This document shows, piece after piece, positions 2,608 to 39,769 of a DNA stretch of 64,000 bases. Position numbers and translations under genes: made by a program. Source of the DNA: an uncultured Deferribacterales bacterium. Lineage in GTDB: Bacteria > Chrysiogenota > Deferribacteres > Deferribacterales > Calditerrivibrionaceae. Location of the stretch: NCBI GenBank assembly GCA_964519265.1, contig CAZFHX010000009.1, positions 11,450-75,449 of the forward strand, read 5' to 3'. The notes below the pieces were generated by a model. That model searched no databases, was not told where the DNA came from, and saw nothing but the letters and a program-made list of their open reading frames with translations. Every line of letters begins with the position of its first letter. Position 1 is the first letter of the stretch.

Positions 2608-3462
2608 TTAAGCTAATATCTCAAAACCGCCAATCTGTTCTAAAGCATCCTTTACGGGATTTATATCTTGATACTCTTTTGAGTCCAACTTTTTCCATGT
2701 TATCCTTACCCCATCTATCTTCACATCTTTTAACTCTTCCGAGATATCCACCTCAGATTTCACCACACACTCGATCAGATTATACCCCGTATCCCGGATA
2801 TAGATCAGCGTATCCCCTATTTTACTGAAATGTGTTTTTATCACTATCCCTGTCCTTGTATCTTTCCTTATGAATATCTCGATGTCATCCAAATCTGAAT
2901 CTTCACTTTTTATTGGTAAATAGGCTTCAAGCCCTGCAAGCAATGTAATGATCTGTAGTTTGCTTATTTGAGATGCAGAGTCACCTTCCCCTTTTTGAAA
3001 TAGATTAAACTTCACATCATCCTTTAAATCTACTCCATTTGCCATCCTATTCTCAAAAAAAATCCCACTATCCTTGATCATCTTTTTAATCTGTTCGGGG
3101 GATACCTCTTTTGGATCTATTTTGAAACCAAACTTATCCAAAAGTTCAACGATAACCTTCCTATCAAACTTCAAAAGCTCACCTTTGAATTTTAGGGTAT
3201 CAGACTGGACATCCCCTTCCTTCGTCAAAAGTTTCAACTCCAAAACAGGATCTGTCTTAACCACCTCAGCCATGAATCTACCCACCTGAGGAAGAGATTG
3301 AAAAGATGCGGTAAACAGTTTACCTTTTATATTCACCAAAAACAGACCATTTTCCAATGGTTTTACTATTGAGATGGGTAGCTTTTCACCCTGCTTTATT
3401 TCGATAGAATTGGGATCAAGGGAAAACCTGATGAGATCCTGAAGCCTTACACCGTCTATCAT
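2608..3462 (-). CDS. hypothetical protein at the distal end of the motility operon (only a weak FliK-C-like pattern)
   Basis: 284-aa ORF with a 4-nt overlap with the upstream ORF. I cannot name any firm motif. The C-terminal beta-rich stretch IVIKTHFSKIGDTLIYIRDTGYNLIECVVKSE vaguely recalls hook-length-control C-domains. Confidence 0.55.
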   Translation of the reverse strand: MIDGVRLQDLIRFSLDPNSIEIKQGEKLPISIVKPLENGLFLVNIKGKLFTASFQSLPQVGRFMAEVVKTDPVLELKLLTKEGDVQSDTLKFKGELLKFDRKVIVELLDKFGFKIDPKEVSPEQIKKMIKDSGIFFENRMANGVDLKDDVKFNLFQKGEGDSASQISKLQIITLLAGLEAYLPIKSEDSDLDDIEIFIRKDTRTGIVIKTHFSKIGDTLIYIRDTGYNLIECVVKSEVDISEELKDVKIDGVRITWKKLDSKEYQDINPVKDALEQIGGFEILA

Positions 3463-3968
3463 CTACCATGTTTTAATACTAAATTGACCTCTGTCACAGA
3501 TATACCCAGCCTTTTTGCCACATCCACAGGTGATAAACCGTTTTGGCTTAGGTAGATCACCTTCTCCCTCAAACTCATACCAGATAGATCAAAGTTTTTC
3601 ATCTGACTATTCTGTTGTGGTTGAGTATAAGTTAGAGTTATGTTATCTTCAACTATATCTGTGCCAGATAAATTATACGAATTTGAGCTATTTACCTGCT
3701 CCAATCTTTTTAATTTTGCATCTATGAGATCCACCAAATCCTCGAGAATAGCCTCTTTCTCCTTTATAGATATGTCCAACTTTTCTGATACCTTCTCAGA
3801 CTCCACCACGAGATCTTTCAATGTGTCGGTGATCAATTTAACATCTTCATAAGACACATTTACCAATTTACGCTGAATAGATTTAATCTTCAAAAAAAGG
3901 TACGCTATTAAAAAAAGCATCAGGAAATTTAAAACAAAAAGTATTATCAAAAACGGTGTCAGATTCAT
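3459..3968 (-). CDS. membrane-anchored coiled-coil protein with C-terminal helix-turn-helix (DUF2802/DUF6115-like flagellar-locus protein)
   Basis: 169 aa. N-terminal TM helix LTPFLIILFVLNFLMLFLIAYLFL, a coiled-coil middle, and a C-terminal HTH-like LREKVIYLSQNGLSPVDVAKRLGISVTEVNLVLK. It overlaps both neighbours by 4 nt. Confidence 0.6.
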   Translation of the reverse strand: MNLTPFLIILFVLNFLMLFLIAYLFLKIKSIQRKLVNVSYEDVKLITDTLKDLVVESEKVSEKLDISIKEKEAILEDLVDLIDAKLKRLEQVNSSNSYNLSGTDIVEDNITLTYTQPQQNSQMKNFDLSGMSLREKVIYLSQNGLSPVDVAKRLGISVTEVNLVLKHGR

Positions 3969-4753
3969 AACATCTTGGCTTCTTTGAGCATCTCCCTATC
4001 TTTGTCAAATACATATTTTACTATATTTTCTCTAATCTCGTTGTCGATCTCTTCAAAAACAGTTCCGCAAATGACACCTTTTTTAGTCTCATGTCTTGAC
4101 ACAACACGGGATATGCTGGCAAACTTTATCTTTGTGGATCCATCATCTATCAATCCATCAACAAATAATATATCATCAACATTAAAATTCTTATCCACCG
4201 AAAAGAAACTAAAACCACCACCACTAATGTCTATAGTTTTCACCTTCATAAAATCGGCATACATATCTTTCTGTTCTTTTAAGATCTCAAGGATCTCATC
4301 GATCTTGTTGTCCAATTCAAAAAGATACCATAAAACATACTGCATCTGTGGAATCTCTTTGCTTATAACACTCTTAATTTTGTATGAGAGGGAATTTTTA
4401 ATATTGTCATTTAAATTTTTAACCTGCTGGTAATACATCGTAAGATCACCCGTGATCTTCTTGATACGGAAATAGCCGCTATACCCTATTCTGTAATGGG
4501 ATCTATCGGTTTTGGCAGGAAGCTCTTTAATTACAGCCAAATCCAGCGTGGTACCATTGTACCTTAGGGGTTTTACCTCGTAGATCTTATTTTGACCCGA
4601 TTCAAAAAAGTTTATCTGTGTGAGGATGGCTTCGTTGAAAGGAAGAGTGGATGGTAATCTAACATTGAGTTTTAGAGGGTCCTTTGAAACGATGTTCCCA
4701 TAAGCCCTTACCACATTATCATCAAAGATGATCTTTAATTTTACGATAGCCAT
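3965..4753 (-). CDS. PilZ-domain c-di-GMP receptor, YcgR-like (candidate flagellar brake), with an unusual insertion
   Basis: 262 aa. It carries an RxxxR motif (DRSHYRIGY) and a DxSxxG motif (IDISGGGFSF), preceded by a PilZN-like N-domain. The two motifs are about 87 aa apart instead of about 20-30. Confidence 0.75.
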   Translation of the reverse strand: MAIVKLKIIFDDNVVRAYGNIVSKDPLKLNVRLPSTLPFNEAILTQINFFESGQNKIYEVKPLRYNGTTLDLAVIKELPAKTDRSHYRIGYSGYFRIKKITGDLTMYYQQVKNLNDNIKNSLSYKIKSVISKEIPQMQYVLWYLFELDNKIDEILEILKEQKDMYADFMKVKTIDISGGGFSFFSVDKNFNVDDILFVDGLIDDGSTKIKFASISRVVSRHETKKGVICGTVFEEIDNEIRENIVKYVFDKDREMLKEAKML

Positions 4754-4756
4754 AGA

Positions 4757-5011
4757 TTACCCCTTTAGATCTATTATTTTCCCCTCTTCTTCCTCAGGAG
4801 CTTTTACGATTTCTGGTTTTCTTTTGCGTTGATCATTACCCTTTTTTTTCTCCTGCTCCTGCCTTCTCTTATCATCAATTACGACCATTTCACCCTTCTT
4901 TACCTCTTCTACCTCTTCCAATTTGTTGTCTGCCTGCTCCTTAAACTCCTGAGAGACTACTACCACTTTATTGTCAACAGATCGATCCTGCACATCCTGA
5001 ACCTTTTCCAC
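4757..5011 (-). CDS. small highly charged K/E-rich protein, unknown function
   Basis: 84-aa ORF ending 3 nt before the PilZ start. It has low complexity and a weak SD, so it could be non-coding. Confidence 0.45.
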   Translation of the reverse strand: MEKVQDVQDRSVDNKVVVVSQEFKEQADNKLEEVEEVKKGEMVVIDDKRRQEQEKKKGNDQRKRKPEIVKAPEEEEGKIIDLKG

Positions 5012-5070
5012 ATAGCTTATCTTTCCGATAACATTCTGTAGATCTACAGGACCTACCCCATAAAAAGCTC

Positions 5071-5901
5071 CTATTTTACATAGGCTATGCCCGTACCAAA
5101 GTTTACCATCTTAAACCTATCATCTATCTTACTGAGGGTTTCAGAATGCCCCAAGTATAGATGACCACCAATATTTAATGTCTTATAGAATATATCGACC
5201 ACTTTTTTCTTTGCTTCAACATCGAAATATATAAGCACATTCCTACAGAATATAAAATCGGCCATACCGATCTTACTTGCCGCCAAACTCTCCATAAGAT
5301 TTGCTTGAAAAAACTTCACCTTTGACTTTATCTCAGGCTTCAGAGTGAAATCGAGCCCTGTTTTGGTAAAATATTTATCTATAATCGATGGTGGAACTCC
5401 CCTGAATGATACAGAACGGTATAATCCTTTTTCAGCAATCGCAATAACCTCTGTGTTGATATCTGTTCCGTAGATCTCGATATTATATTTTCCGTACATC
5501 CCCTCTTCATTGAGGAGCATGGCAATGGAATAAGGCTCTTCGCCTGAGGAACATGCAGCAGACCAGATCTTAAAACTTCTTTTCCCTTTTGTAGCCATTT
5601 CTGGGATCACTTTTTTTATCATGTGATCCATTTGAGCCCTTTCCCTTAGAAAGTATGTTTCATTGATCGTAACCAGATTCATCAAAACCTTAAGTTCGTC
5701 CCTTCTCTTGAGATCGTATTTAAGATAGTAGATGTAATCTTTATAAGAGGTAAAGTTTAGTTCATTTAACCTCTTGGTAAGCCTATTCTCCAGCAGGTAC
5801 TTCTTGTTTATAGTGAAAGTAATACCTGCATTTTTGTATATGATATCCGCAAGCTCTGCAAACTCCTCATCCTTCATCTTGATTGTAGCTGAAGTAATCA
5901 T
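5071..5901 (-). CDS. cheR: chemotaxis protein methyltransferase CheR
   Basis: 276 aa. N-terminal helical CheR_N, then a SAM-binding domain with IWSAACSSGEEPYSIAM and FCRNVLIYFD. Confidence 0.9.
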   Translation of the reverse strand: MITSATIKMKDEEFAELADIIYKNAGITFTINKKYLLENRLTKRLNELNFTSYKDYIYYLKYDLKRRDELKVLMNLVTINETYFLRERAQMDHMIKKVIPEMATKGKRSFKIWSAACSSGEEPYSIAMLLNEEGMYGKYNIEIYGTDINTEVIAIAEKGLYRSVSFRGVPPSIIDKYFTKTGLDFTLKPEIKSKVKFFQANLMESLAASKIGMADFIFCRNVLIYFDVEAKKKVVDIFYKTLNIGGHLYLGHSETLSKIDDRFKMVNFGTGIAYVK

Positions 5902-7316
5902 AGCTCACCCACTACTGAATATATTTTTTCCTTTACATATCTATTTGTTTCCGATTTGGCATGGGTTCGTAGCTTATCCAGGAAGCCTTCTGGTTTTAAT
6001 TCTTCCAATATCTCTACAGCCTTGAATCTCACCACCCAACTGCTATCCTTGAGGCAGTTGTATGCCGATTCTATTGCCATATCCCTATTCAATAGCGATA
6101 TCGAATTGAGAGCCTCCTTTCTGATATCTTCATTTGTATCATCCATAAGTTGGAAAAGAAATTCGGACACATCGTTGCCAATATTACCTAAAGCCTCGAT
6201 GATGGCAATTCTTACCTGTGTATCAACCGTAGGGTATAGCTTCACAAGCTGATCACTGCACCTTGCCTCTTTACACAATGCACCAATTGCCTTTACAGCA
6301 AAATAAGCAACCCAAACATCCTTATCATGTACAAGATCCATGATCTGATCGATCTTGTCTGTTGCCTTTATCCTGATCAGAGATGATGCAGCAGCTTCTC
6401 TTATCTTTATAGATCCCTCTTTGAGCATATTCAAAAGGATATCGGCAACCTCTGGCTTATTAAAATAGGAGATCGCCTTTGCAAGCTGTGCCCTAAGCAG
6501 TTCATTCTCCTCTTTTTTGAGATGTTCTATAAGAAACTTGTAAGCAAAATCATCATTTATCAGGCTCAAAGCTTGGATTGCTATCTTTCTTAATCTTTCA
6601 TCTGAGCTATTTAAATACTCTTTGATGGCTATAGAATCGTTTTCATCCGCCAAAAGAGCTATTGTGGCTGCAGCAGCCTCGGCCACATCGATATGTTCAT
6701 CTTCTAAGAATGAGTATATCCTCTCCTTACAATCATCCTCTCCAAACCAGCCCAAAACGAGAATAGCAGATCTCACCACATTTGGATATGGGCTATCCAA
6801 ACACCCCTTTACCACATCCACATAGTCGTAGTTGTGGGATTTCCCTACTATAAGGATAGCAGATTCTATCAATATAGGGTCATCAGAAGCAAAGAACTCT
6901 TTTACCAAACTTGCATATTCATCATTAAAATTTGCAACGATAAACTCTATTATCGCCTCGTTCATCTCGGGATCCAAGATGAGATAACTCAATTCATGGG
7001 GGGAATAACTGCTAAAATCCCTATCCAAAGTAAAATGATCCAGTAGATTGGATATTTCGAGTACCTGCTGAACCCCTTCCTGAATATTGGTAAGCACAAG
7101 TTTTAAATTTTTAGATATGGCAACCTTCTTTATCCCCAAAAGTTCGGCTATCAATTTACTTTGAAGGTATGGAACATCTTTGAAATCCAGTCTTATCTCT
7201 CTGATATCGGCATGTTTGTTTATCTCGTCCTTTGCTTCTTTGAAATCTTTTACATCCAAATCATGGGGCAATTTAACGGATAAAACCTTCTTATCTTTAT
7301 CTAAAAAGACATTCAT
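5898..7316 (-). CDS. STAS-like N-terminal domain fused to HEAT/PBS-lyase-like repeat protein
   Basis: 472 aa. The first ~100 aa resemble an anti-sigma antagonist fold (...DFKDVPYLQSKLIAELLGIKK...LVLTNIQEGVQQVLEISNL). The rest is repeated about 30-aa units of the type D..VR..A...LG.. (e.g. PNVVRSAILVLGWFG, ERLRKIAIQALSLI, IKIREAAASSLIRI, VWVAYFAVKAIGAL, TQVRIAIIEALGNIG, EDIRKEALNSISLL, SWVVRFKAVEILEEL). Confidence 0.75.
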   Translation of the reverse strand: MNVFLDKDKKVLSVKLPHDLDVKDFKEAKDEINKHADIREIRLDFKDVPYLQSKLIAELLGIKKVAISKNLKLVLTNIQEGVQQVLEISNLLDHFTLDRDFSSYSPHELSYLILDPEMNEAIIEFIVANFNDEYASLVKEFFASDDPILIESAILIVGKSHNYDYVDVVKGCLDSPYPNVVRSAILVLGWFGEDDCKERIYSFLEDEHIDVAEAAAATIALLADENDSIAIKEYLNSSDERLRKIAIQALSLINDDFAYKFLIEHLKKEENELLRAQLAKAISYFNKPEVADILLNMLKEGSIKIREAAASSLIRIKATDKIDQIMDLVHDKDVWVAYFAVKAIGALCKEARCSDQLVKLYPTVDTQVRIAIIEALGNIGNDVSEFLFQLMDDTNEDIRKEALNSISLLNRDMAIESAYNCLKDSSWVVRFKAVEILEELKPEGFLDKLRTHAKSETNRYVKEKIYSVVGEL

Positions 7317-7320
7317 AACT

Positions 7321-7644
7321 CTACCCTTTTAATGCTTGAGATTCATCACTATAAATCTTAAACACCTTATCCAACCCTGTAAAAGCAAACATCTCCTTTA
7401 TATCATTGGACATATCACACAATCTTAAATTCTTGTTCTCCTTCTTACTTCTCTTGAGAAGATCTATGATCTCCCTCAACCCAGAGCTATTCATATACAT
7501 AACACCCTTGAAAGATAAAACAACTGTCCCCACCTTTTTAAAGATATCAAGAACCTTATTTTTGAGTTCTAAACCTGATTGTGCATTTACCTCACCTTTC
7601 AAATATACAACAGTAACTCCACCTACTTCTTTTACATCAAACAT
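7321..7644 (-). CDS. STAS-domain anti-sigma-factor antagonist (SpoIIAA/RsbV family)
   Basis: 107 aa. VTVVYLKGEVNA...LSFKGVMYMNSSGLREIIDLLK carries the conserved phosphorylatable Ser loop. Its start codon abuts the phosphatase stop, and the SD AAGGGGGT lies inside the upstream gene. Confidence 0.85.
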   Translation of the reverse strand: MFDVKEVGGVTVVYLKGEVNAQSGLELKNKVLDIFKKVGTVVLSFKGVMYMNSSGLREIIDLLKRSKKENKNLRLCDMSNDIKEMFAFTGLDKVFKIYSDESQALKG

Positions 7645-9222
7645 TTATACCCCCTTTTTCTTTATAACAAGTATAGTTATATCGTCGTTAAACTTTCTTC
7701 CTCTGCAAAACTCTTTTACATCTGCCATAATATTATCCACGATCTCCTGACAAGACAACTCATTAAACATGATAATTTTTGAGATAAGCCGATCATACCC
7801 ATATAGCTCATCTTCGGGATTCATCGCCTCCACCAACCCATCGGTGTACATGAAAGCTATATCTCCATCCTTTAAATTAAATGAACCACTCTCATACTCC
7901 ACATCATCAAAAACCCCTAAGAACATCCCGCCAACCGTTAGTTTTTTTACCATCATATTATCTTTTTCAAATAAAAGCAATGGGTTATGTCCCGCACTGG
8001 CAAAATTACACTCCCCTGTTGCAGAATTCATAACAACATAAAGCATCGTAACAAAATCGTTTGTATAGATATTGCTACAGAGAATCTCATTGACCATCGA
8101 GATAGCTTCACTTGCATTTATAACATCGTAGGTGTAAGATCGCATGATAGCCCTTGTGATCGCCATGATGACCGCAGCAGGTGTCCCATGACCTGAAACA
8201 TCAGCAACGGCAAATCCCCAATAGCCATTGCTCATTTCTATACAATCGTAATAATCCCCCCCTGCATGCTCCGCAGGGATATAAAGTGAGCCAAACTCAT
8301 AACCTTCCAAATCTGGTAGAGAAGATGGTAATAAACTCGCCTGAATCTCACCCACTTGCCTTAATTCATCATCTATGGTCTTCTGAGCATGTTGCAATTT
8401 CTCATTCATCTTCAGCAGATCAGCATTCAACAGAGACATCTGCCTCTGTTTCTCCTCAAGCTCTTTCTGCTGTTTCTTGATCTCATCTATGAGATAGACC
8501 TCTTTTGTAACATCCCTGATGCTTTCCACCATGAAATTTTCAAACTTATTAAAGTGAACAGACAAACTCTTTCCATTAGTCTTCCTCGAACTCTTTGATG
8601 TAGATTTATTTGTGTAGGGGCAATCAGGGCATTGACCATCAAATCCGTAAATATGAAAACATTTTTTATCTTTCAAATCTGAGTCTTTTATATCGAAAAT
8701 CTCTTTGGTAACATAGTTGGAAAAGACCACATCAAAGTTTTCGTTTACTACAAGGATCCCTTCGTTGGTACTGTTTAGAACCTTTTCCATAAAGTACTGC
8801 TTTTTCTCGATCTCTTTCTTTTGGAGATTTAGCATTACATTTTTGGCTTTGAGTTCCTTAGTTTGGTGGGTCATGGTATCTACAAGCTTTTTATTCTCAG
8901 TGATATCTGTAATGATCTCTACAAAGGAACCATTTTCCACTTTTTCAAACTTTGCTGAATAGATCCTTCTAAATCCCCTATGGGTAATCGCATCATGAAT
9001 AATATTTATGGGGATCTTATTATTCTTGATATTTTCGATCTGACAATTTGGACAAGGCTCGCTGAGACCGAATAGAACACTAAAACACTTCTTGTTTATG
9101 TGTTTTTCTGGAGTTTTTCCTGTGAGGGTTTTAACGGGAGCATTGATATATTTTATCTTATAATTTTCATCTATCTCAACTATTATGCTATCGATGGCAT
9201 TTAATAATAAAGTATAATCCAT
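7645..9222 (-). CDS. PAS-PAS-coiled-coil-PP2C (SpoIIE/RsbU family) serine phosphatase
   Basis: 525 aa. Two PAS-like modules each end in a C-x9-10-CPxC motif. A coiled coil follows, then a PP2C core (GGDYYD, ADVSGHGTPAA, YTDGLVEA, DDITILV). Confidence 0.85.
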   Translation of the reverse strand: MDYTLLLNAIDSIIVEIDENYKIKYINAPVKTLTGKTPEKHINKKCFSVLFGLSEPCPNCQIENIKNNKIPINIIHDAITHRGFRRIYSAKFEKVENGSFVEIITDITENKKLVDTMTHQTKELKAKNVMLNLQKKEIEKKQYFMEKVLNSTNEGILVVNENFDVVFSNYVTKEIFDIKDSDLKDKKCFHIYGFDGQCPDCPYTNKSTSKSSRKTNGKSLSVHFNKFENFMVESIRDVTKEVYLIDEIKKQQKELEEKQRQMSLLNADLLKMNEKLQHAQKTIDDELRQVGEIQASLLPSSLPDLEGYEFGSLYIPAEHAGGDYYDCIEMSNGYWGFAVADVSGHGTPAAVIMAITRAIMRSYTYDVINASEAISMVNEILCSNIYTNDFVTMLYVVMNSATGECNFASAGHNPLLLFEKDNMMVKKLTVGGMFLGVFDDVEYESGSFNLKDGDIAFMYTDGLVEAMNPEDELYGYDRLISKIIMFNELSCQEIVDNIMADVKEFCRGRKFNDDITILVIKKKGV

Positions 9223-9249
9223 CTGCTCTCCGCTTTTTTGTTAATTATA

Positions 9250-9278
9250 ATTCTAATACAAACCTTAAAAAAATTCAA
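9250..9278 (-). promoter_or_regulatory. candidate sigma-70 promoter for the phosphatase-STAS-STAS/HEAT-cheR unit
   Basis: The minus strand reads TTGAAT (9278-9273), a 17-nt spacer, then TAGAAT (9255-9250). A GGAGAG SD and ATG 9222 follow. Confidence 0.4.
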
Positions 9279-9290
9279 TTCGTATTTGAA
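9267..9290 (-). terminator. weak AT-rich hairpin plus T7 run after the 332-aa ORF (possible partial terminator)
   Basis: After the stop, the minus strand reads TTCAA-ATACGAA-TTGAA-TTTTTTT. The stem is only 5 bp and it overlaps the proposed -35. Confidence 0.3.
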
Positions 9291-10289
9291 CTATTTTGTA
9301 AAAAAAACAATTATCAATGCTACTATAGAAACAACTATAACTATCACAGACAACTTCTTAAGTTGCTTCGTAATCTGATCTAACTGCTCTATATTTTTCT
9401 TTTTCATTTCTTCAAGGATCTGTTCATACTTAAAGAGGTTGTTTTTTCTGTTGTTGAATTCATCAAGGTACTTGTTCATATCCTCTTCAAGTTCATACTC
9501 TGCAAGGGCTCCAAGATATAAAACAAGATTTTGAATCATATAAAAAAAATCCTCTTTCATCCAACCGAAAGGTTCTTCAAATTCGAGGGATGAGATATTA
9601 AGGAGATCTGTTAGCAATGCAAATTGATAGGCTTTCAATTTCTTTCTAACTTCAGCGTCAATATCATTAATATCATCAATTGATTTAACTAATTCAAAAA
9701 TTGGTTCAAATTGTACCACGAGTTTATCCCGAAACTCAGGAATAAGTTTTATTGGAACCGTTGTTTTCTGCTCTTTGGGTTTATTTTCCTTTAAGAAATT
9801 TTTTATCAAAACAAAACCTGAAGGTGTTTTGGGCTTTTTCCTTTTTATCTTGGGTTTCACCACAAGTTCGGTCTTCTTTTTGATGGCAATGAGGGTTTCA
9901 ATTATATTATCAGGGGTAAATATAAAGTGCCCTTTATCCTCTAAAACATCCCTGCTGGAATCATCTATACCACCATTCGTGAAGAAGAAGAGTTTGAGCA
10001 TGTTTAGATCATTCAAAGTTCTAAGCACTTCGTAAGATATATCTCTCGTTACATCGTTTCCAGGTTTTACAATTTCTACCCATACAAGGGCATAATCATC
10101 CAAGTTTTTCTGATGTTTCCAAACCTCTATTCTCCTGTAATCCTGCACATCCCTGATTGCTCTATGAAAGCTAAAATTGAGATCCCCCATGATATGTGCA
10201 ATGTAATCATAAAATGTGGAGATATCCATCTCCACAAAATCTTTAAAACTTAGTTCTTCTATATCCTCAAAGATATCCCTTTTCATCAA
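9291..10289 (-). CDS. tail-anchored protein with N-terminal Mrr-like (restriction-endonuclease-fold) domain, K-rich linker and coiled coil
   Basis: 332 aa. The N-terminal ~135 aa follow the Mrr_cat pattern (FKDFVE...YIAHIMGDL...DYALVWVEIVK...LFFFTNGGIDDSSRDVLED...IFTPDNIIETLI). A lysine-rich linker and a helical region follow. The C-terminal TM helix is LSVIVIVVSIVALIIVFF. Confidence 0.6.
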   Translation of the reverse strand: MMKRDIFEDIEELSFKDFVEMDISTFYDYIAHIMGDLNFSFHRAIRDVQDYRRIEVWKHQKNLDDYALVWVEIVKPGNDVTRDISYEVLRTLNDLNMLKLFFFTNGGIDDSSRDVLEDKGHFIFTPDNIIETLIAIKKKTELVVKPKIKRKKPKTPSGFVLIKNFLKENKPKEQKTTVPIKLIPEFRDKLVVQFEPIFELVKSIDDINDIDAEVRKKLKAYQFALLTDLLNISSLEFEEPFGWMKEDFFYMIQNLVLYLGALAEYELEEDMNKYLDEFNNRKNNLFKYEQILEEMKKKNIEQLDQITKQLKKLSVIVIVVSIVALIIVFFTK

Positions 10290-10879
10290 TTCTTAACCTT
10301 CTTTATCTCCAATTTGATACTCTGCTCTGGGATATTAAATCTCTCAGAGATAACAGTTTTTAGACCATTTATATCCATCTGTTCACTACCGTTATCCAAT
10401 GATGCAGGTTGACCTATAAAAATATTTACCTGATTACAATAACTAACTTGCTTATTAATAGACTTTGCTTTTGATTTAGATGTTGGTTTAACTTTAGACT
10501 TCTTATATACCTGCTGAGAATATTTTTTCGCTTTTTGGGAAGGTGCAGTTTTTTTGACACTATCCTGTTCTATTTTCTTAACTTTTTCCAAACTCTTATC
10601 ATCTTTTTCAAGCAAAGCAAGTTTGGTCTCATTTTGACTATTAGAACTTAATCTTTTTACACTTAAAACCTTCCAGCCGTTTAAACTTACCTCCTCTTTG
10701 GCATCTATTTCGGAACTACTGTGAACAATAAACTCTGTTTTTATACCACTATCAACCTTTTCTGCTAATACAGAATATCTCCCTCTTTCGTAAGCAAAAA
10801 GATTACCTCCACCATATATAAGGATTAGCAGACCTATCATCAGGAGCTTTCTTGGGCAACAGTACATTGACATTCTCAC
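10286..10879 (-). CDS. secreted or periplasmic K/S-rich hypothetical protein
   Basis: 197 aa with a clear signal peptide (PRKLLMIGLLILIYGGGNLFA). The real start is probably ATG 10873 or 10867 rather than GTG 10879. It overlaps the next ORF by 4 nt. Confidence 0.6.
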   Translation of the reverse strand: MRMSMYCCPRKLLMIGLLILIYGGGNLFAYERGRYSVLAEKVDSGIKTEFIVHSSSEIDAKEEVSLNGWKVLSVKRLSSNSQNETKLALLEKDDKSLEKVKKIEQDSVKKTAPSQKAKKYSQQVYKKSKVKPTSKSKAKSINKQVSYCNQVNIFIGQPASLDNGSEQMDINGLKTVISERFNIPEQSIKLEIKKVKN

Positions 10880-11132
10880 TTTCTAATTTAAATTCTTTCA
10901 GTGCCTTCTTAAAATCATTATCGGCATAAACCTTCACAACCTTTAACTCTTTAATGAGGTCCTTTCCACCATTGCTCAATAAAAATGTATCAGGAGACAA
11001 CTTCGAAGCGGTTTGAAATCTCCTATCTGCCGTGGTCACTTCGTAAACATAGATATATGCATACAAGTCAAAAACAGGTAACAAAATCAGTGCAATCGCA
11101 ATTAATCTACCTATTTGCACCCACCAATTCAT
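10803..11132 (-). CDS. small membrane-anchored hypothetical protein
   Basis: 109 aa with N-terminal TM helix WWVQIGRLIAIALILLPVF. It overlaps the cheA 3' end by 26 nt and the downstream ORF by 65-77 nt, so its coding status is uncertain. Confidence 0.45.
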   Translation of the reverse strand: MNWWVQIGRLIAIALILLPVFDLYAYIYVYEVTTADRRFQTASKLSPDTFLLSNGGKDLIKELKVVKVYADNDFKKALKEFKLESENVNVLLPKKAPDDRSANPYIWWR

Positions 11133-13206
11133 CGATCTTGTTTAACATCTCCTGGAGGTTTATAGGCTTTGTCATAAAGGCATTTAGTCCCGAAATCTTC
11201 GCTTTCTGACCAGCAGCTGCCTCTCCTCTACCGGAAACACCTATGATAGGTTTATCAAAGCCTCTTTCCCTCAATATACGGGCAAGTTCAAAACCATCTA
11301 TATCTGGCATCATAATATCGGTGATGATAAGATCTATCTTGAGATCCTGTGCAGCTGTTATCGCATCGTGAGGATTTGTTACCTCTATACAGTTTATCCA
11401 TCCAGAAGAGGTAAGTAGTCTCTTCATGATCTTTCTATCCGTTGATGAATCATCCACTATCAGGGCATTAATAGTATTACCGCTCGAAGTCACCGCTGAC
11501 TTTAGAGATTTATGCTTTTTGATCTTCTTTGGCATTTTAGATGCAATCTCCATGACACCGGAAACATCGAGGATCAACCTCACCTTACCATCCCCCATGA
11601 TAGTGGCACCAGCAATACCAACATTTCCACTCAAGTATTCACCAAGTGATTTGATAACGATCTCCTCCTGCCCTACAAGGCGATCCACCACGAGACCTAT
11701 TCTCTTTTCTGCTAAAGCAACAACTACTACATATAGATCCTGAGAGAAAGACCCCTCAAGTCCAAAAACATCATCAAGCCTTACAAGGGATAGCACTGAA
11801 TCCCTGAGTTTTAAGACCTCTCTACCTTCAAAATTGTGTATTTCGTTTTCATTAATCCTAACCGTTTCGATAACTGACACGAGTGGTATCGCAAACACCT
11901 CACCAGATACATCCACGAGAAGTGCCTGAATAATGGCGAGGGTAAGTGGTAGTTTCAGTTTAAAAACAGATCCTTTGTCCACTTCAGATTCGATACTGAT
12001 GATACCGTTGAGTTTTTCGATATTGGTTTTTACCACATCCATACCTACACCACGCCCAGAAACACCTGTAACCTTCTCAGCAGTGGAAAATCCAGGTTTG
12101 AAAATAAGCCCAAAAGCCTCATCTCTGCTCATGTTTTTGGCTTCATCTGGGGTGATCACCTTCTTTTCGATAGCCTTCTTTTTCAACTTTTCAGGATCCA
12201 TCCCCTTACCGTCATCGGTGATCTCGATTACTATGTGATTCCCCTCATGGTAGGCAGCCAAATGAACCTTACCCTTGGCAGGTTTCCCCTTTCTCATCCT
12301 CTCTTCAGGGCTTTCTATGCCGTGATCTACAGCATTTCTAATCATATGCACAAGGGGATCGCCGATCTCTTCGACAACGGATTTATCAAGTTCTGTATCC
12401 TCACCGGTGATTATAAGGTCTACATCCTTTTTTAGATCCCTCGCCAAATCTCTGATCATTCTGGGGAATTTATTGAATACCTTTCCAATCGGCACCATTC
12501 TTGTCTTCATCACTGCAAGCTGTAGCTCAGTGGTAATAAGACCGATTTGAGATGTGGTCTCGAGAAGCTGCTCAACAAGATAATCCCCTTCGAACTTCCT
12601 CTCCAGTTCGGAAGATATCTGGGCTATCCTGTTCCTACTTAAAACCAATTCACCAACCAAGTTCATAAGGGAATCGAGCCTTGATACATCAACCCTAATC
12701 GTTTGTTCTATAGCCTTAGTTGCTTTTTTGAGATTTGCACCTTCGCCGTCATCCTTATGTTCAGCCTTTTGCTGTTTCTTATCAGAATCTGTTGAAACAG
12801 TAGATGGTGCTACATTGACCTTGCCTTCATTGGCCAACTTCAATTTTTTTACGATCTGATCTATATTGATTGTGTCTCTACCATTTTTGATATCATCTAA
12901 GATCTTTTTGATAACATCGACAAACTCGAGAAGAATATCCATTATCTCAGGAACAACAACCATCTCCCCTTTTCTGAGTTTGTTTAATATCTCTTCGGCA
13001 TGGTGAGTCACAGTACTCATCTTGTCGAAACCTAAGAATGAAGAGGAACCTTTTATAGTGTGGGCAGCACGGAAGATCTTGTTTAACAGATCGAGGTCAT
13101 TTTTTCTATGTTCGAGTTCCACAAGGTCTTGATCCAACTGTTCTATTATCTCCGACGATTCTAAAATAAAATCTTGAATCAAATCATCCATCTCACCATG
13201 GGACAT
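11107..13206 (-). CDS. cheA: chemotaxis histidine kinase CheA with C-terminal receiver domain (CheA-REC, no P2 domain)
   Basis: 699 aa. Hpt P1 (FRAAHTIKGSS), a short linker directly to P3, HATPase (HMIRNAVDHG, DDGKGMD, GRGVGMDVV), a P5 CheW-like domain, then REC (LIVDDS...IITDIMMPDIDG...KP). Confidence 0.92.
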   Translation of the reverse strand: MSHGEMDDLIQDFILESSEIIEQLDQDLVELEHRKNDLDLLNKIFRAAHTIKGSSSFLGFDKMSTVTHHAEEILNKLRKGEMVVVPEIMDILLEFVDVIKKILDDIKNGRDTINIDQIVKKLKLANEGKVNVAPSTVSTDSDKKQQKAEHKDDGEGANLKKATKAIEQTIRVDVSRLDSLMNLVGELVLSRNRIAQISSELERKFEGDYLVEQLLETTSQIGLITTELQLAVMKTRMVPIGKVFNKFPRMIRDLARDLKKDVDLIITGEDTELDKSVVEEIGDPLVHMIRNAVDHGIESPEERMRKGKPAKGKVHLAAYHEGNHIVIEITDDGKGMDPEKLKKKAIEKKVITPDEAKNMSRDEAFGLIFKPGFSTAEKVTGVSGRGVGMDVVKTNIEKLNGIISIESEVDKGSVFKLKLPLTLAIIQALLVDVSGEVFAIPLVSVIETVRINENEIHNFEGREVLKLRDSVLSLVRLDDVFGLEGSFSQDLYVVVVALAEKRIGLVVDRLVGQEEIVIKSLGEYLSGNVGIAGATIMGDGKVRLILDVSGVMEIASKMPKKIKKHKSLKSAVTSSGNTINALIVDDSSTDRKIMKRLLTSSGWINCIEVTNPHDAITAAQDLKIDLIITDIMMPDIDGFELARILRERGFDKPIIGVSGRGEAAAGQKAKISGLNAFMTKPINLQEMLNKIDELVGANR

Positions 13207-13215
13207 AGGTGCCTC

Positions 13216-13848
13216 CTATAAGCCGAATTCTTTTAATAACTGATTAACAAGATCTTGATCATTTAAAATGCTATCCTTTTCTCCCAATCTATTCAGTGTA
13301 TCGACATCTATCTTGTTATGCTTTAGTCCAAACTTTATGATCAGATCACTTAATCTCTTTTCTAAGTCTTTAACCACTTTTAAGAGCTTATCGATCTTCT
13401 GCTTTGTGATATCTTGAAACTCGAGAGCCGATATCATATCAAAAGCGATATCCTGCCCCTCTATCGATTTATCCACAAGTCGATCAATCAAACCCAACGC
13501 CTTACTAAAATCCTCGCTATCTAAAGACTCCTTGAGGAGTGAGATATTATCTTTTATCTCACTTATATTGAAATTTATACTATCTGTTAGATTAAGGATC
13601 TTTTCTGAAGCAGACTTTGTATCCCTGACTACCTCTTTCAATACCTTTTCAAATACTGGCAGATCCTCGTAGCTATCCTCAACTACATCTCTGACGGTGG
13701 TGATCTTTTTAATCGACTCATTGAAAAACTGCACTACTTCGAAAAGCTCATGATTTGGATCTATAGAGATAGTGGTCAATTCGTATTCGCCAGAATTGAT
13801 CTTCTTAGCGATCTCTATCAATTCTGAGAGATCTTTTACTTCGTACAT
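13216..13848 (-). CDS. cheZ: CheY-P phosphatase CheZ
   Basis: 210 aa. The active-site helix ALEFQDITKQKI matches the CheZ FQDLTGQ motif (catalytic D and Q). The C-terminal peptide DQDLVNQLLKEFGL resembles the CheY-binding tail of E. coli CheZ. Confidence 0.8.
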   Translation of the reverse strand: MYEVKDLSELIEIAKKINSGEYELTTISIDPNHELFEVVQFFNESIKKITTVRDVVEDSYEDLPVFEKVLKEVVRDTKSASEKILNLTDSINFNISEIKDNISLLKESLDSEDFSKALGLIDRLVDKSIEGQDIAFDMISALEFQDITKQKIDKLLKVVKDLEKRLSDLIIKFGLKHNKIDVDTLNRLGEKDSILNDQDLVNQLLKEFGL

Positions 13849-13849
13849 A

Positions 13850-14227
13850 TTACAGTCCTAAAAGCTTAAAAACTTTCTCCTGTAGCGTCTCAGGTGTAAA
13901 TGGTTTTACGATGTAGTTATTTACACCGCTTCTTAGAGCAGTGAGGATATCCTCCTTTGCAGCTTCGGTGGTAACCATTAGAATCGGAAGCTCTTTATAT
14001 TCTGGTTTGGCTCTGATAGCTTTTACAAATGTGAGACCATCCATCTCAGGCATATTCCAGTCTGTGATGACGAGATCCACTTTATTTTTGGCCAACACAT
14101 CCAAACCCTCTATCCCATTACCAGCCTCTAAGATATTTGAAAAACCTAATTTTTGAAGGGTATTCTTTATGATCCTGCGCATCGTGGATGAATCATCGAC
14201 TGTAATAATCACATGTTCATAAGCCAT
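13850..14227 (-). CDS. cheY: chemotaxis response regulator CheY
   Basis: 125-aa single REC domain: TVDDSSTMRR, LVITDWNMPEMDG, MVTTEA, YIVKPF. Confidence 0.92.
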   Translation of the reverse strand: MAYEHVIITVDDSSTMRRIIKNTLQKLGFSNILEAGNGIEGLDVLAKNKVDLVITDWNMPEMDGLTFVKAIRAKPEYKELPILMVTTEAAKEDILTALRSGVNNYIVKPFTPETLQEKVFKLLGL

Positions 14228-14261
14228 TTATATGCCTCCTGCTTTCTTGAGTGCTTATTTT

Positions 14262-14291
14262 ATTATACTTGATACAAATATATTATGTCAA
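14262..14291 (-). promoter_or_regulatory. near-consensus sigma-70 promoter for cheY-cheZ-cheA
   Basis: The minus strand reads TTGACA (14291-14286), an 18-nt spacer, then TATAAT (14267-14262). AGGAGG follows, then ATG 14227 seven nt later. Confidence 0.6.
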
Positions 14292-14301
14292 TATAAATTT
14301 C

Positions 14302-15183
14302 TTAGTCCCTTAGTTTTTTTATCCTCTCTTCTTTACTGATTATCTCTTTGATCCTTACCCCAAAATAGCCATCCACGATAACCACCTCACCTTTGGCTAT
14401 AGGTTTATTATTTACCATTACAACTACAGGTTCCTCCGCATATTCATCAAGCTCTACTATATTTCCGGGGCTCAAACTCACTATATCTTTGAGGAACATT
14501 CGGGTGGAACCGATCCTAATACTCACAGGAACCTCCACATCGAGTAAAAGATCGATATTCTTCCCACCAGATTGCTTCTGCTGTTTGGGCATAGGATTTA
14601 CTGCTGTGATGTCTGGTGAAAAATCGAAATCATCATCCTCTGTATCTTCAGGCATGATCAATTCTTTAAACTTAGATGAGAAAAATAACTTAAACTTTAC
14701 ATCCTTACCATTATATTTTGAACTCATTTCGAAAATTATTATATTCCCAGCATAACTCGATGTATCAAGGAGTGTATCCACAGAGATTACACCAAAAGCG
14801 ACTTTTTTCTTAAATTTCTCATTGAAAGGGATGTTAAGTCCAGATATAGTCTGATTTATCAACTCCTTAATAGCATCCTTGAGATCATCATTCAGCTCTG
14901 ATACCCCATCTCCAGGACCCATGAGCATAAGATCAGCCAAACCTGTAATCGTCAGGGTATCTATGAGAATACCACCATCTATACCATTTAAGCTCTCTTT
15001 TAGATTTATGAGGGTCTGCCCCATATACTCGAGAGCAATATCATTCAACTCCCCTTCATTCACAGCCTCAACATGAAAATCGAAGCTTTTACCCAAAAGA
15101 GAGGAGAAACTCCCATTAAAGATCTCCACCAAAAGTTCAGAAAAATTGCTTATCTCAATGCTCGGCTTCAGTTGTTTCAACAC
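14302..15183 (-). CDS. fliY: flagellar motor switch protein FliY/FliN (CheC-like N-domain plus FliN/SpoA C-domain)
   Basis: The C-terminal LLLDVEVPVSIRIGSTRMFLKDIVSLSPGNIVELD...GEVVIVDGYFGVRIKEI is FliN. The middle region has a CheC-type D-x3-E-x2-N motif (DAIKELIN). I prefer the GTG 15183 start (AGGAGA SD 6 nt upstream) over the track's TTG 15198. Confidence 0.85.
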   Translation of the reverse strand: MLKQLKPSIEISNFSELLVEIFNGSFSSLLGKSFDFHVEAVNEGELNDIALEYMGQTLINLKESLNGIDGGILIDTLTITGLADLMLMGPGDGVSELNDDLKDAIKELINQTISGLNIPFNEKFKKKVAFGVISVDTLLDTSSYAGNIIIFEMSSKYNGKDVKFKLFFSSKFKELIMPEDTEDDDFDFSPDITAVNPMPKQQKQSGGKNIDLLLDVEVPVSIRIGSTRMFLKDIVSLSPGNIVELDEYAEEPVVVMVNNKPIAKGEVVIVDGYFGVRIKEIISKEERIKKLRD

Positions 15184-33802: not shown

Positions 33803-36175
33803 TTACTTCAATTTAGTGGAAAAATATGTAAATCTTTTGGATCTATCGGGAAATTTGATCAAAGCCTTGTCTAAATAGCGTTTTGCATCTGATTTTTTGT
33901 TGAGCTTTAAATAACCTTCTATAGCTGCGGCATACAGCTCAGGATCGTTAAATTTCTCTATCCCCAACATCTCAAAGATCTTTGTCCCCTCTTCGTAGTT
34001 TCCCTTTCTTATGAGGGCAAATGCATAGTAAACCATTATCTCTTCATCGTTAGCAAAGGCGTTGTAAGCTTTGATAAATGAGTCTACAGCATCATTTATC
34101 CGCCCCATATTAAGATAAACCTTACCACTTGTGAGAAGTTGCTCCGCTAAAAGGATATTTTTTATATCTATCTTTTTATTCGGTTTACCAGATTCATTTT
34201 TTTGAATAAGGGAGTCGTATGCATATTTTATAATTTCAAATATCTCCCTTGCCAACTGCTTCCCCTGGGGGTCAGTCACAAGATCGGGGTGATATTTTTT
34301 AGAAAACTTGAGATAGGTCTGCTTAATCTTTTCCAAACTATGATCTCCACCCTTCACATCGAAGATCTCCTCTGGTGTCATCTGCTTTATCTTGTTTAGA
34401 TACTCCTGCAACTCTTTCAGTGGTATCTCAGGTTCTTCATATTCTTTTATATAACCCAACCTGTAGAGGACATTTAAGGTAGCCATTTCGTACTCATTTA
34501 GATTTTCCAGCTCATCAGAAGACAACCTTCCATCTTTGAAGCGATCTAAAAGATTTACCAACAACCCTATATTATCAAACTCTGAAACTAAGACATTCCT
34601 ATCCTTCAAAAGCTCGTAATCTGCCTGGATATTCAACTCGTTCTTTAACTTCACTCTACCATTTACAATGGACAGTAGCAGCATAAAAAGCATATTAAAA
34701 TCGTACTCAATATCTATCGGTATCGTCTTGTCATACACAAAAATCGATGAAAATACCTCACTACCTAAGATTTCGTAAAAGAGCATATTCTCGTAAACTT
34801 CCAAAACACCCCTTATATCATCGAAAGAGTAGTTGTTCTTTTCCATAAAATTCGTAAAAAAAGTTATAAAATCGTCAGATGCATCCACTTGAAATGTTAC
34901 AAACACACTGGTCTTTTCGTGCAAAAACTTTGATATGGAAAAATCATCAGATATGGAATATAAAAATACAAGTTTCCCTTGCTTAAAAAAAAGTTTTGCC
35001 GTCATGATGTTGGTCACAATCTCAAGCTCACCAGTCAATTCCCGCTTGTAAATATCGAGTAGGACGGAAATAATATCGTTGGACATCACCTCTGTCTTGT
35101 TTTTTTCCTGCTGCTTTATCAATAAAAGCCCTAATTTATGCAACTTATCGATTATAAGATAAAGCTCTGCCTTTGTAATGTTGACTACCTTAGACAGTTT
35201 AGCCACCGTTGGATAATCATCCATTCTTGATAAAACGAAACCCTCCACTGGAGATATATAGATCTTTTCATCGAGCAATTTGAGCCTATTCACAGAAAAA
35301 ATGGTATTCTCGCCGCCAAATTTTTTCGTAAAATATTTAGTTATGTAAAGCACCATATTGTCGTAAAACTTCTTAATCTGATCATTCTGGTAGCCGGAGT
35401 TTAGTATCGATATTATACTTTTGAGGGATTCGTATATCTTATTTTTATTGAACAGCTCCAAAGCCACTATAAACTTAACTATAGGGTCCTCAGGCTCCAC
35501 AAACTCTTTCTCAGAAACGATCTTCATCGTTCCATTGATTATTCCTGTATAGATCTGTTCATAAGTAGAAAAGTAATCCCCACCTATCTCCCTAACGATC
35601 TCCCCCACAGATTTTGTACCATCAGCATACTTTTTTAATGGGTTCTGTTCATCCTTAACCACAATAACGGAATTTTGGGAGAACACCTTAAAAAACCTCG
35701 ACATATCATCCTTTCTTCTGAGCCCTTCCAGAATAAGAAAATCAACAGGCATAGATACCATCGTATCCCTGACATCCTTTTCATCGAATACAAAAAATCC
35801 GCTCTCCCAATTTAAAATATGATAGACCACTTCCTCTACCTGTATTTCAAGAATCCTCTTTACACTTGATTCATCAAGGAAATTATACTCAATCAAAACT
35901 TGACCAATCGGTATTTTTAACTGCTTTTGTAGAGAAAGCCCCTTAACCAGACTACTTTTATTCAGCATTTTGTACCTAAGCAAAAGTTGACCTACAAGAA
36001 GAGAAGGTATATTGGAAGTGACATAGACAATTCTACCGTTTTTGAAGATGATATTTACTTCATCATTATCTTTTTGAAGGTGCAACTCTCCATTCTTATT
36101 GGAAAAGGCGATCCACTGAAAAACTTCGGTAATCGGCATCGCTTTGAGATCGCCAACAAGCCCTTTACTGACCAT
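33803..36175 (-). CDS. PATAN (DUF4388) x2 - DnaJ J-domain - TPR multidomain protein
   Basis: 790 aa. N-terminal LVGDLKAMPITEVFQWIAFSNKNGELHLQKD..VNIIFKNGRIVYV is DUF4388. A second copy lies near aa 380 (LTGELEIVTNIMTAKLFFKQGKLVFLY). The J-domain has HPD (LKFSKKYHPDLV), and TPR repeats close the C-terminus. Confidence 0.8.
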   Translation of the reverse strand: MVSKGLVGDLKAMPITEVFQWIAFSNKNGELHLQKDNDEVNIIFKNGRIVYVTSNIPSLLVGQLLLRYKMLNKSSLVKGLSLQKQLKIPIGQVLIEYNFLDESSVKRILEIQVEEVVYHILNWESGFFVFDEKDVRDTMVSMPVDFLILEGLRRKDDMSRFFKVFSQNSVIVVKDEQNPLKKYADGTKSVGEIVREIGGDYFSTYEQIYTGIINGTMKIVSEKEFVEPEDPIVKFIVALELFNKNKIYESLKSIISILNSGYQNDQIKKFYDNMVLYITKYFTKKFGGENTIFSVNRLKLLDEKIYISPVEGFVLSRMDDYPTVAKLSKVVNITKAELYLIIDKLHKLGLLLIKQQEKNKTEVMSNDIISVLLDIYKRELTGELEIVTNIMTAKLFFKQGKLVFLYSISDDFSISKFLHEKTSVFVTFQVDASDDFITFFTNFMEKNNYSFDDIRGVLEVYENMLFYEILGSEVFSSIFVYDKTIPIDIEYDFNMLFMLLLSIVNGRVKLKNELNIQADYELLKDRNVLVSEFDNIGLLVNLLDRFKDGRLSSDELENLNEYEMATLNVLYRLGYIKEYEEPEIPLKELQEYLNKIKQMTPEEIFDVKGGDHSLEKIKQTYLKFSKKYHPDLVTDPQGKQLAREIFEIIKYAYDSLIQKNESGKPNKKIDIKNILLAEQLLTSGKVYLNMGRINDAVDSFIKAYNAFANDEEIMVYYAFALIRKGNYEEGTKIFEMLGIEKFNDPELYAAAIEGYLKLNKKSDAKRYLDKALIKFPDRSKRFTYFSTKLK

Positions 36176-39476: not shown

Positions 39477-39545
39477 ATGTGACCTCCTGTTTTTAATTGG
39501 TAAATTATAAACCACTGTTTATTTTCTATCATCAAAAAGAGAATT

Positions 39546-39580
39546 TGTCAACAGATTTATTGTATACAATATACAAATTA
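39546..39580 (-). promoter_or_regulatory. gltA promoter region: the same 20-nt palindromic box plus TTGACA -35
   Basis: Minus strand: TAATTTGTATATTGTATACA (39580-39561), 9 nt, TTGACA (39551-39546), 17 nt, TAGAAA. Confidence 0.55.
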
Positions 39581-39769
39581 CATTCACAGACATTATTGTT
39601 TTTATTGATAAATTAGATTATTAAAACTTATAATAAAAATTAAAAAAATATTTTAATATGAAACATTACCAAAAAACTGTTTTCAAAAACAAACTGTATT
39701 ATCTTTTAGTTATAACATAACATAGAAATTTTAGTTGAATAACTTCGAAAAATTTATTAGTTTCGAAGA

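Follow-up and report, generated by a model that had tools for sequence, protein, structure and literature searches.

A putative phosphoserine switch with a STAS-HEAT fusion protein adjoining cheR in Deferribacterota and Chrysiogenota

Introduction

In the current view, chemotactic adaptation depends on CheR and CheB together with His-Asp phosphotransfer. Genes for STAS proteins and phosphatases recur in chemosensory clusters such as the ancestral F7 clusters and Shewanella Che1, and their outputs are poorly understood. Besides cheR, ancestral ('stage 1') F7 che clusters contain one gene for a Ser phosphatase and two for anti-sigma antagonists (PMC7184735), STAS and Ser-phosphatase genes lie within the che cluster in Shewanella Che1 (CrsR-CrsA; PMC9855816), and such genes have also been noted in che clusters of Campylobacterota (PMC9239204). 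For HsbA, a STAS protein encoded in the flagellar cluster of Pseudomonas, the partners that are not sigma factors include FlgM and the cyclase HsbD (PMC5085249, PMC9855816). Here we analyse a four-gene unit which encodes a PAS-PAS-PP2C sensor phosphatase, a single-domain STAS protein, a STAS-HEAT fusion protein and CheR, found in a window of 64,000 nucleotides (nt) on contig CAZFHX010000009.1 of an uncultured Deferribacterales bacterium.

Cpc7 of Myxococcus is a HEAT-type partner of CheY7, and FrzF is a CheR-TPR fusion. The HEAT_PBS protein OE2401F of Halobacterium is essential for taxis switching and binds both CheD and CheF (PMC2666748). No description of a STAS-HEAT fusion protein was found in our literature search, in agreement with a preliminary description of this locus whose author knew of no characterised protein of that kind. 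The genome paper of Deferribacter desulfuricans lists che clusters with CheA/Y fusions and leaves the module unmentioned (PMC2885270). What is new at this locus is the STAS-HEAT fusion and the tandem PAS sensors with their Cys triads, while the occurrence of STAS and phosphatase genes in che clusters is already known. Our preferred reading, which we put forward tentatively and with slightly less than even confidence, is that the unit would form a phosphoserine module of the partner-switch type that is served by a kinase encoded in trans and that tunes chemotaxis or motility, probably via CheR and adaptation.

Conservation of the gene unit and its link to cheR

All four genes of the unit lie on the minus strand. 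The first (7645-9222) encodes the sensor phosphatase of 525 amino acids (aa), which was assigned from Pfam, an AlphaFold2 (AF2) model and an internal duplication. It ends at 7645 and is followed with a 0-nt junction at 7644 by the gene of the 107-aa single-domain STAS protein (7321-7644), which is of the anti-sigma-antagonist type according to Pfam, NCBIfam and a PDB match. A gap of 4 nt separates the end of this gene at 7321 from the start at 7316 of the gene for the 472-aa STAS-HEAT fusion (5898-7316; Pfam STAS and HEAT_2, AF2), and the stop codon of the latter overlaps cheR by 4 nt (5898-5901). The 276-aa cheR product (5071-5901) is a two-domain CheR methyltransferase with Pfam CheR_N (E 8.9e-15) and CheR (E 3.6e-57) matches. 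The open reading frames (ORFs) and the junctions of 0, 4 and -4 nt bear out the four minus-strand genes of the preliminary description, and cheR is translationally coupled to the fusion gene.

The closest homologues come from Calditerrivibrio in the phylum Deferribacterota. The STAS-HEAT proteins form a tight family of about 472 aa that was found in Calditerrivibrio, Deferribacter, Flexistipes, Geovibrio, Denitrovibrio, Seleniivibrio, Limisalsivibrio and Mucispirillum, and the Chrysiogenota proteins show 24-27% identity to it. When 1.84 billion representatives were searched with a profile of the full-length alignment, 106,227 matches were returned, of which the best 150 include only twelve full-length STAS-HEAT representatives (468-520 aa); because giant HEAT-repeat proteins dominate the matches, this search says little about STAS-HEAT proteins in other phyla.

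Loci from 38 Deferribacterota species were compared, of which 34 span all four core genes and four end at contig ends. The order CheB-FliM-FliN-CheY-CheZ-CheA(REC)-109-197-332-PP2C-STAS-STAS-HEAT-CheR-(84)-PilZ-DUF6115-284, where numbers stand for ORFs named by their length in aa, was observed in all 38, and PP2C-STAS-STAS-HEAT-CheR is kept in each of the 34 loci that cover the four genes. The spacing is 2-13 nt between STAS and STAS-HEAT in 34 of 35 loci and -8 to +5 nt between STAS-HEAT and CheR in 36 of 38, with a 4-nt overlap at the latter junction in all three Chrysiogenota. The sole junction of the unit that varies across species is the one between the 332-aa ORF and the phosphatase gene (-5 to 529 nt). 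This variable spacing, which amounts to 214 nt in Desulfurispira, fits an internal promoter in many species.

In the Chrysiogenota genera Desulfurispira, Desulfurispirillum and Chrysiogenes (loci L039, L041 and L044) the PP2C-STAS-STAS-HEAT-CheR block lies after fliD-fliS-(yjfB), and no cheA, cheY or fliA gene was found within 10 kb of it. The tail after CheR consists of a small charged protein, a PilZ-like protein of about 261 aa, a DUF6115 protein and a protein of 364-516 aa. Since the block adjoins fliD-fliS there, and not cheA or fliA, cheR is the constant che neighbour of the switch block. The link to cheR that had been drawn for the window is thereby strengthened, as the tight junction between STAS-HEAT and cheR is conserved in both phyla.

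The earlier view of the module as spliced into the chemotaxis operon has to be given up. The gene order is the same in all 38 loci, the GC content and the GC content at third codon positions (GC3) equal those of the flanks, and there are neither meaningful flanking repeats nor Rfam elements (window positions 1-24000), so the arrangement is ancestral and not inserted. A recent insertion or a mobile element was rejected on the same grounds.

Among the loci with the module is that of Mucispirillum schaedleri (L023), a motile gut pathobiont. Two loci differ at the STAS-HEAT/cheR junction. In Denitrovibrio sp. BM704 (L035) STAS-HEAT is seemingly split into two ORFs with an apparent gap of 389 nt before cheR, for which a frameshift, pseudogene formation or an error of sequencing could account, and a 191-nt gap was seen in locus L027.

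The free and the fused STAS domains

The free STAS protein (7321-7644) matches Pfam STAS with an E-value of 1e-17 and NCBIfam TIGR00377 with 78.5 bits against a cut-off of 53.45. In the PDB it is most similar to SpoIIAA and RsbV, and its alignment to SpoIIAA (1th8_B, E 6.8e-10) brings the SSG motifs into register. The candidate phospho-acceptor motif reads Y-M-N-S53-S-G-L, and none of the residues Y50, N52, S53, G55, L56 and R57 varies among 37 orthologues. The protein can therefore be described, as was done before, as a 107-aa STAS protein with a loop of the DSSG type that holds a predicted phosphorylatable Ser, a feature shared with RsbU/V/W-type switches.

The N-terminus of the fusion protein (5898-7316), which had been called STAS-like, is a STAS domain. 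Pfam STAS matches residues 8-99 with 34.4 bits (cut-off 22.6), and the AF2 model of the fusion, with an overall predicted local distance difference test (pLDDT) score of 94.1, shows a STAS head (residues 1-100; pLDDT about 90) of the order strand, strand, helix, strand, helix, strand, helix, strand, followed by a helical linker and an all-helical solenoid. The match of the head to TIGR00377 (41 bits) lies under the cut-off, and its PDB sequence matches to TM1442, SpoIIAA and RsbV are weak (E 0.005-0.4). In these alignments Ser53 (YLQS53K) falls on the phosphorylated Ser58 of SpoIIAA and on the equivalent Ser of TM1442, and neither D44 nor S53 varies among 36 genome orthologues. The loop has the canonical form Y-I-N-S-S-G in Chrysiogenota whereas Deferribacterota have Y-[IL]-Q-S-K. 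The free and the fused STAS domains are linked by BLAST across the phyla (E 5e-7 and 3e-8), and this similarity suggests that a duplication of the adjacent STAS gene gave rise to the fusion.

The remainder of the fusion protein is a HEAT solenoid. Pfam places five HEAT_2 stretches in it (E 7.8e-41), and the model shows about 22 helices, or about eleven HEAT/PBS-lyase-like helix pairs, from which a bilin-lyase activity is not implied. The structures that Foldseek returned from the PDB, alphaRep and the PP2A A subunit (E 1e-10 to 1e-6), are all generic solenoids of the HEAT type.

The sensor phosphatase

Pfam recognises a PAS_9 domain (residues 11-109, E 2.7e-10) and a SpoIIE/PP2C domain (residues 332-521, E 2.9e-51) in the phosphatase (7645-9222). 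The second PAS module is invisible to Pfam and was recognised by BLASTP as a duplication of the first within the protein (E 1e-10, with 28% identity over 122 residues). The AF2 model (pLDDT 91) shows residues 1-250 as two PAS folds bridged by a helix of 40 residues, and Foldseek aligned this part with the tandem-PAS sensors DosP, NifL, FixL, LOV-PAS-HK and PpsR, so that both PAS-like modules of the preliminary description are upheld. A helical linker separates PAS2 from the PP2C domain. As in RsbU/V/W-type switches, the metal-binding motifs of the PP2C domain are intact, and no substitution of D323, D341, G344-H345-G346, D461-G462 or D513-D514 occurs in 34 orthologues from the two phyla or in 24 database homologues. 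No REC or HATPase_c_2 domain was found by Pfam in the phosphatase, and the same Pfam content was observed in 94 full-length family members; the REC-PP2C-HATPase_c_2 architecture of the HsbR/CrsR type is not present.

Each PAS domain carries a Cys triad, C46-x10-C57-x2-C60 in the first and C188-x9-C198-x2-C201 in the second, and all six residues are invariant in the same orthologues and database homologues. No PDB sequence match contains the triad. In the model the triads lie within short helices and a loop (residues 46-60 for the first), a region which is the usual place of cofactor binding in PAS domains such as those of FixL and LOV proteins. Because the triads sit in this region, the two domains probably hold a metal site or an Fe-S or otherwise redox-active site.

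The PAS domains with Cys triads may define an undescribed type of sensor for metal, Fe-S or thiol redox.

The linker between PAS2 and PP2C includes the motif E257-K-Q-R-Q-M262, which is at least 90% conserved. This Glu/Gln-rich signalling helix, or STAS-HEAT, could be the substrate of CheR if the methyltransferase acted on a component of the switch and thereby tuned the phosphatase. A precedent is RsbM of Bacillus cereus, which methylates a signalling helix of RsbK that feeds the PP2C phosphatase RsbY and RsbV/RsbW (PMC4574943). We consider this explanation very improbable, as the window encodes a standard two-domain CheR with cheB in the same cluster, no methylation consensus like that of methyl-accepting chemotaxis proteins was identified in the linker, and no second cheR was found in the 64-kb window or in any recovered locus. 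Since there is no other cheR in the window or the recovered loci, methylation of receptors is the parsimonious role of this CheR.

Kinase and promoters

The Pfam scan of window ORFs of at least 100 aa found no HATPase_c_2 or RsbW-type kinase, and the only GHKL proteins in the 64 kb are CheA and one HAMP-HisKA-HATPase_c kinase (57318-58805). A hidden Markov model (HMM) built from two sequences, SpoIIAB and RsbW, was also run on stop-to-stop segments of at least 50 aa from the window and 39 related loci (728 kb), where it matched only the classical kinase at 57318-58805; this is a weak test. Both searches agree with the earlier statement that the 64 kb encode no RsbW/SpoIIAB-type kinase, and the cognate GHKL Ser kinase or anti-sigma factor of RsbU/V/W-type switches was found neither in the window nor at the 39 loci.

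Several conserved ORFs near the unit were considered as the missing kinase and rejected. The 109-, 197- and 332-aa ORFs have segments resembling signal peptides or transmembrane (TM) helices and gave no kinase match, the 284-aa ORF has counterparts in Chrysiogenota that weakly match the C-terminal part of FliK instead, and the 84-aa ORF is low-complexity and charged and is not FlgM-like by Pfam or NCBIfam.

With no local kinase in about 44 loci, the unit might be a switch unrelated to motility that acts together with an RsbW-sigma pair encoded elsewhere, in which case STAS-HEAT would be a second antagonist or a decoy substrate and the adjacency to cheR would be historical. Components of partner switches are encoded at separate loci in Chlamydia, and the PP2C-STAS pair stands alone in one low-GC lineage described below. 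We judge this rather improbable, as the block stays among flagellar and chemotaxis genes in two phyla in spite of its relocation. Since the block and its coupling to cheR persist through this relocation, a functional linkage to motility is favoured.

Upstream of the phosphatase gene lies an intergenic stretch of 68 nt (9223-9290, minus strand) with a possible internal promoter. The preliminary description had given the unit its own sigma-70-like promoter; the site in question, TTGAAT-17-TAGAAT at 9278-9250, matches the consensus at 9 of 12 positions, which is no better than chance (34 such sites against 31.4 +/- 5.0 in shuffled sequences). No sigma-28-like motif was found 5' of the phosphatase unit. 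A perfect TTGACA-18-TATAAT (14291-14262, minus strand) occurs in the 74-nt gap upstream of cheY and is the only 12/12 match in 4600-14400, which suggests that a transcript comprising cheY-cheZ-cheA and the following genes starts there.

These observations bear on an output through sigma-28, which the preliminary description had raised. In an arrangement like that of HsbA, the dephosphorylated STAS or STAS-HEAT protein would sequester FlgM or another anti-sigma factor and thus set FliA (sigma-28), giving a transcriptional output. The free STAS protein is of the anti-sigma-antagonist type, fliA does lie about 8 kb upstream of the module in the same minus-strand run in Deferribacterota, and in Pseudomonas HsbR-HsbA belongs to a flagellar cluster and HsbA binds FlgM (PMC5085249, PMC6482189). 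However, no FlgM-like or anti-sigma gene was found in the block or the window by Pfam or NCBIfam, the phosphatase is without the REC and kinase domains of HsbR, and no sigma-28-type promoter precedes the unit. The comparison of genomes gives the sigma-28 link no support either, as the block is not near fliA in the three Chrysiogenota genera. We therefore regard this explanation as unlikely.

A lineage without STAS-HEAT

One lineage of low GC content (about 30%; loci L040, L042 and L043) has kept PP2C-STAS and CheR and has lost STAS-HEAT. Its loci follow the Deferribacterota order from FlhG to PP2C-STAS, and the proteins are recognisably related to those of the window (CheA 60%, FliM 67% and the 513-aa phosphatase about 41% identical). 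Between STAS and CheR lie 640-950 nt of AT-rich (23% GC) non-coding DNA (L040 11893-12531; L042 7892-8838; L043 7892-8621), in which no remnant of STAS-HEAT was found. The STAS protein retains the motif Y-I-N-S-S-G-L and the phosphatase all six Cys residues. Because PP2C, STAS and CheR persist here without the fusion, STAS-HEAT would be an accessory branch and not the sole output, and the PP2C-STAS pair would have an output of its own. The proposal that STAS-HEAT is the output scaffold of the switch is thus weakened.

The same lineage also lacks the last gene of the tail that follows cheR. In the window this tail (2608-5011, minus strand) consists of four genes, namely those of a small charged, low-complexity protein of 84 aa (4757-5011), a PilZ-domain protein of 262 aa (3965-4753; Pfam), a DUF6115 protein with a TM segment and a part resembling a helix-turn-helix (3459-3968; Pfam) and a fast-evolving 284-aa protein (2608-3462), for which the homologue search found relatives at the level of Calditerrivibrio only. 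The tail accompanies the switch unit and cheR in Deferribacterota as well as in Chrysiogenota. The Chrysiogenota counterparts of the 284-aa protein give sub-threshold matches to the C-terminal domain of FliK (Flg_hook; E 2e-4, 0.027 and 0.25).

STAS-HEAT could, under control by phosphorylation, act as an adaptor of the motor or of the export apparatus, working with the structural or brake proteins of the flagellum that are encoded downstream (the PilZ, DUF6115 and FliK-like proteins) and not with CheR. The constant company of the four genes, the loss of the FliK-like gene together with STAS-HEAT and the haloarchaeal HEAT_PBS protein that acts between CheY and the motor (PMC2666748) would suit such a role. 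It seems quite unlikely to us, as the two genes were lost together only once, the FliK matches lie under the Pfam thresholds with no FliK assignment by Pfam for the window protein itself, and the tightest junction of STAS-HEAT is the one with cheR, while 300-870 nt separate cheR from the PilZ gene.

Proposed role of the module

According to the reading that we prefer, a trans-encoded GHKL kinase of the RsbW type would phosphorylate the free STAS protein at Ser53, and in most lineages the STAS-HEAT head at its Ser53 as well. The PAS domains with their Cys triads would sense a redox or metal signal and switch the PP2C phosphatase on or off, and the resulting phosphorylation state would determine the partner choice of the STAS modules. 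The HEAT solenoid would serve as a docking adaptor whose likeliest client is CheR or the receptor-adaptation machinery, with STAS-HEAT as an accessory branch and the free STAS protein having a separate output. A redox or metabolic signal would in this way retune chemoreceptor methylation and swimming post-translationally and not via a sigma factor. A more specific form of the proposal, in which STAS-HEAT is a phosphoserine-gated adaptor that either brings CheR to the chemoreceptor array or keeps it away, as directed by the redox- or metal-sensing PAS-PP2C protein, is doubtful though conceivable.

Several observations weigh against a phosphoserine module acting on CheR. No Ser kinase was found at the locus, and Ser phosphorylation is therefore derived from motifs. 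The Gly of the SSG motif has been lost from the Deferribacterota fusion, and Ser53 is replaced by Ala or Asn in two of twelve divergent metagenomic cluster representatives. The structural matches of the HEAT part are generic and give no functional lead, and the nature of the cofactor held by the PAS Cys triads is a guess. In a mirror-tree comparison of STAS-HEAT with CheR, STAS and PP2C, the partial correlation between STAS-HEAT and CheR was -0.62, but the comparison covers only 12 taxa, is dominated by rate classes and is uninformative as a whole. The adjacency in the operon may reflect co-expression only, and PP2C, STAS and CheR persist in the low-GC lineage without STAS-HEAT.

A Ser-phosphorylation switch wired to cheR would add an input layer through which the redox or metabolic state acts on methylation. 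If the adaptor form of the proposal is true, adaptation would be set in a way not known before, with Ser phosphorylation controlling receptor methylation, and this would extend across Deferribacterota, including Mucispirillum, and Chrysiogenota. The block is constant in two phyla, moves with cheR and has one natural loss of STAS-HEAT, which makes it a good system for studying the function of such switches.

Neighbouring genes and other features of the window

The module had been placed directly downstream of cheA. Three conserved minus-strand ORFs of 109 aa (10803-11132), 197 aa (10286-10879) and 332 aa (9291-10289) in fact intervene between cheA and the phosphatase gene. Judged from the translations, the first two have N-termini resembling signal peptides or TM segments and the third has a C-terminal TM segment, and none matches a family in Pfam or NCBIfam. 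They are kept in position across Deferribacterota and lie outside the Chrysiogenota block. These ORFs may encode unrecognised accessory proteins of the flagellum or the envelope. In the low-GC lineage the middle one of the three measures 306 aa and has a weak OmpA-like match.

Diguanylate cyclases are encoded on the plus strand at 43781-44818 and 48042-49328, one of them of the REC-REC-GGDEF type, and these are possible sources of cyclic di-GMP for the PilZ-domain protein. A 790-aa DUF4388(PATAN)-DnaJ-TPR protein (33803-36175, minus strand) is encoded near the flagellar cluster. At 49321-52166 on the plus strand, two adjacent genes encode a YkuD L,D-transpeptidase, whose C-terminal domain is of the Cds6 type, and a carboxypeptidase matching Peptidase_M99 (E 3e-36; 'controlling helical cell shape'). 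This pair resembles the cell-shape genes for peptidoglycan trimming in Helicobacter and Campylobacter and fits a vibrioid organism.

Gene orientation changes from all-minus to all-plus at about 39500-39800, at the divergent pair 38151-39515 and 39770-40609. The GC skew shifts there from about -0.2 to between about 0 and +0.1, and the AT skew turns from negative to positive. No dnaA gene was found near this position, and the shift may be origin-like or simply a bias of the gene strands.

Comparison with known systems

The module resembles the RsbU-RsbV-RsbW and SpoIIE-SpoIIAA-SpoIIAB switches in having a PP2C phosphatase of the SpoIIE family, with a sensor region at its N-terminus, and a single-domain STAS protein with a D/N-S-S-G-L loop. 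It differs from them in that the unit has no gene for a GHKL kinase/anti-sigma factor or a sigma factor and contains a second STAS domain fused to a HEAT solenoid, and in that it is coupled to cheR and located among flagellar and chemotaxis genes.

With HptB-HsbR-HsbA of Pseudomonas and CrsR-CrsA/Che1 of Shewanella, the module has in common a predicted STAS phosphoserine switch among flagellar or chemosensory genes. HsbR and CrsR, however, are REC-PP2C-kinase fusions that work on a phosphorelay and have no HEAT partner, whereas the phosphatase of the module is of the PAS-PAS-PP2C type. The ancestral F7 clusters likewise carry STAS and Ser phosphatase genes beside cheR in a che cluster, but they belong to another chemosensory class, their genes are ordered differently, the two STAS proteins are described as plain anti-sigma antagonists, and no HEAT fusion has been reported for them.

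OE2401F and Cpc7 are similar to STAS-HEAT as alpha-solenoid HEAT_PBS proteins that are encoded in che/fla regions and are needed for taxis output, although the sequence similarity between them and STAS-HEAT is only that of generic repeats. Both consist of HEAT repeats only, whereas the solenoid of the module carries a STAS head with a putative phosphorylation site and is paired with a PP2C phosphatase and a free STAS protein. Finally, in CheR-TPR proteins of the FrzF type and in the RsbM-RsbK pair, too, a methyltransferase of the CheR type is functionally joined to an alpha-solenoid or to a signalling module. RsbM ties methylation of this type to a PP2C/STAS switch (PMC4574943). Compared with the FrzF type, the solenoid of the module is a separate polypeptide, is built from HEAT and not TPR repeats, and is translationally coupled to CheR instead of being fused to it.

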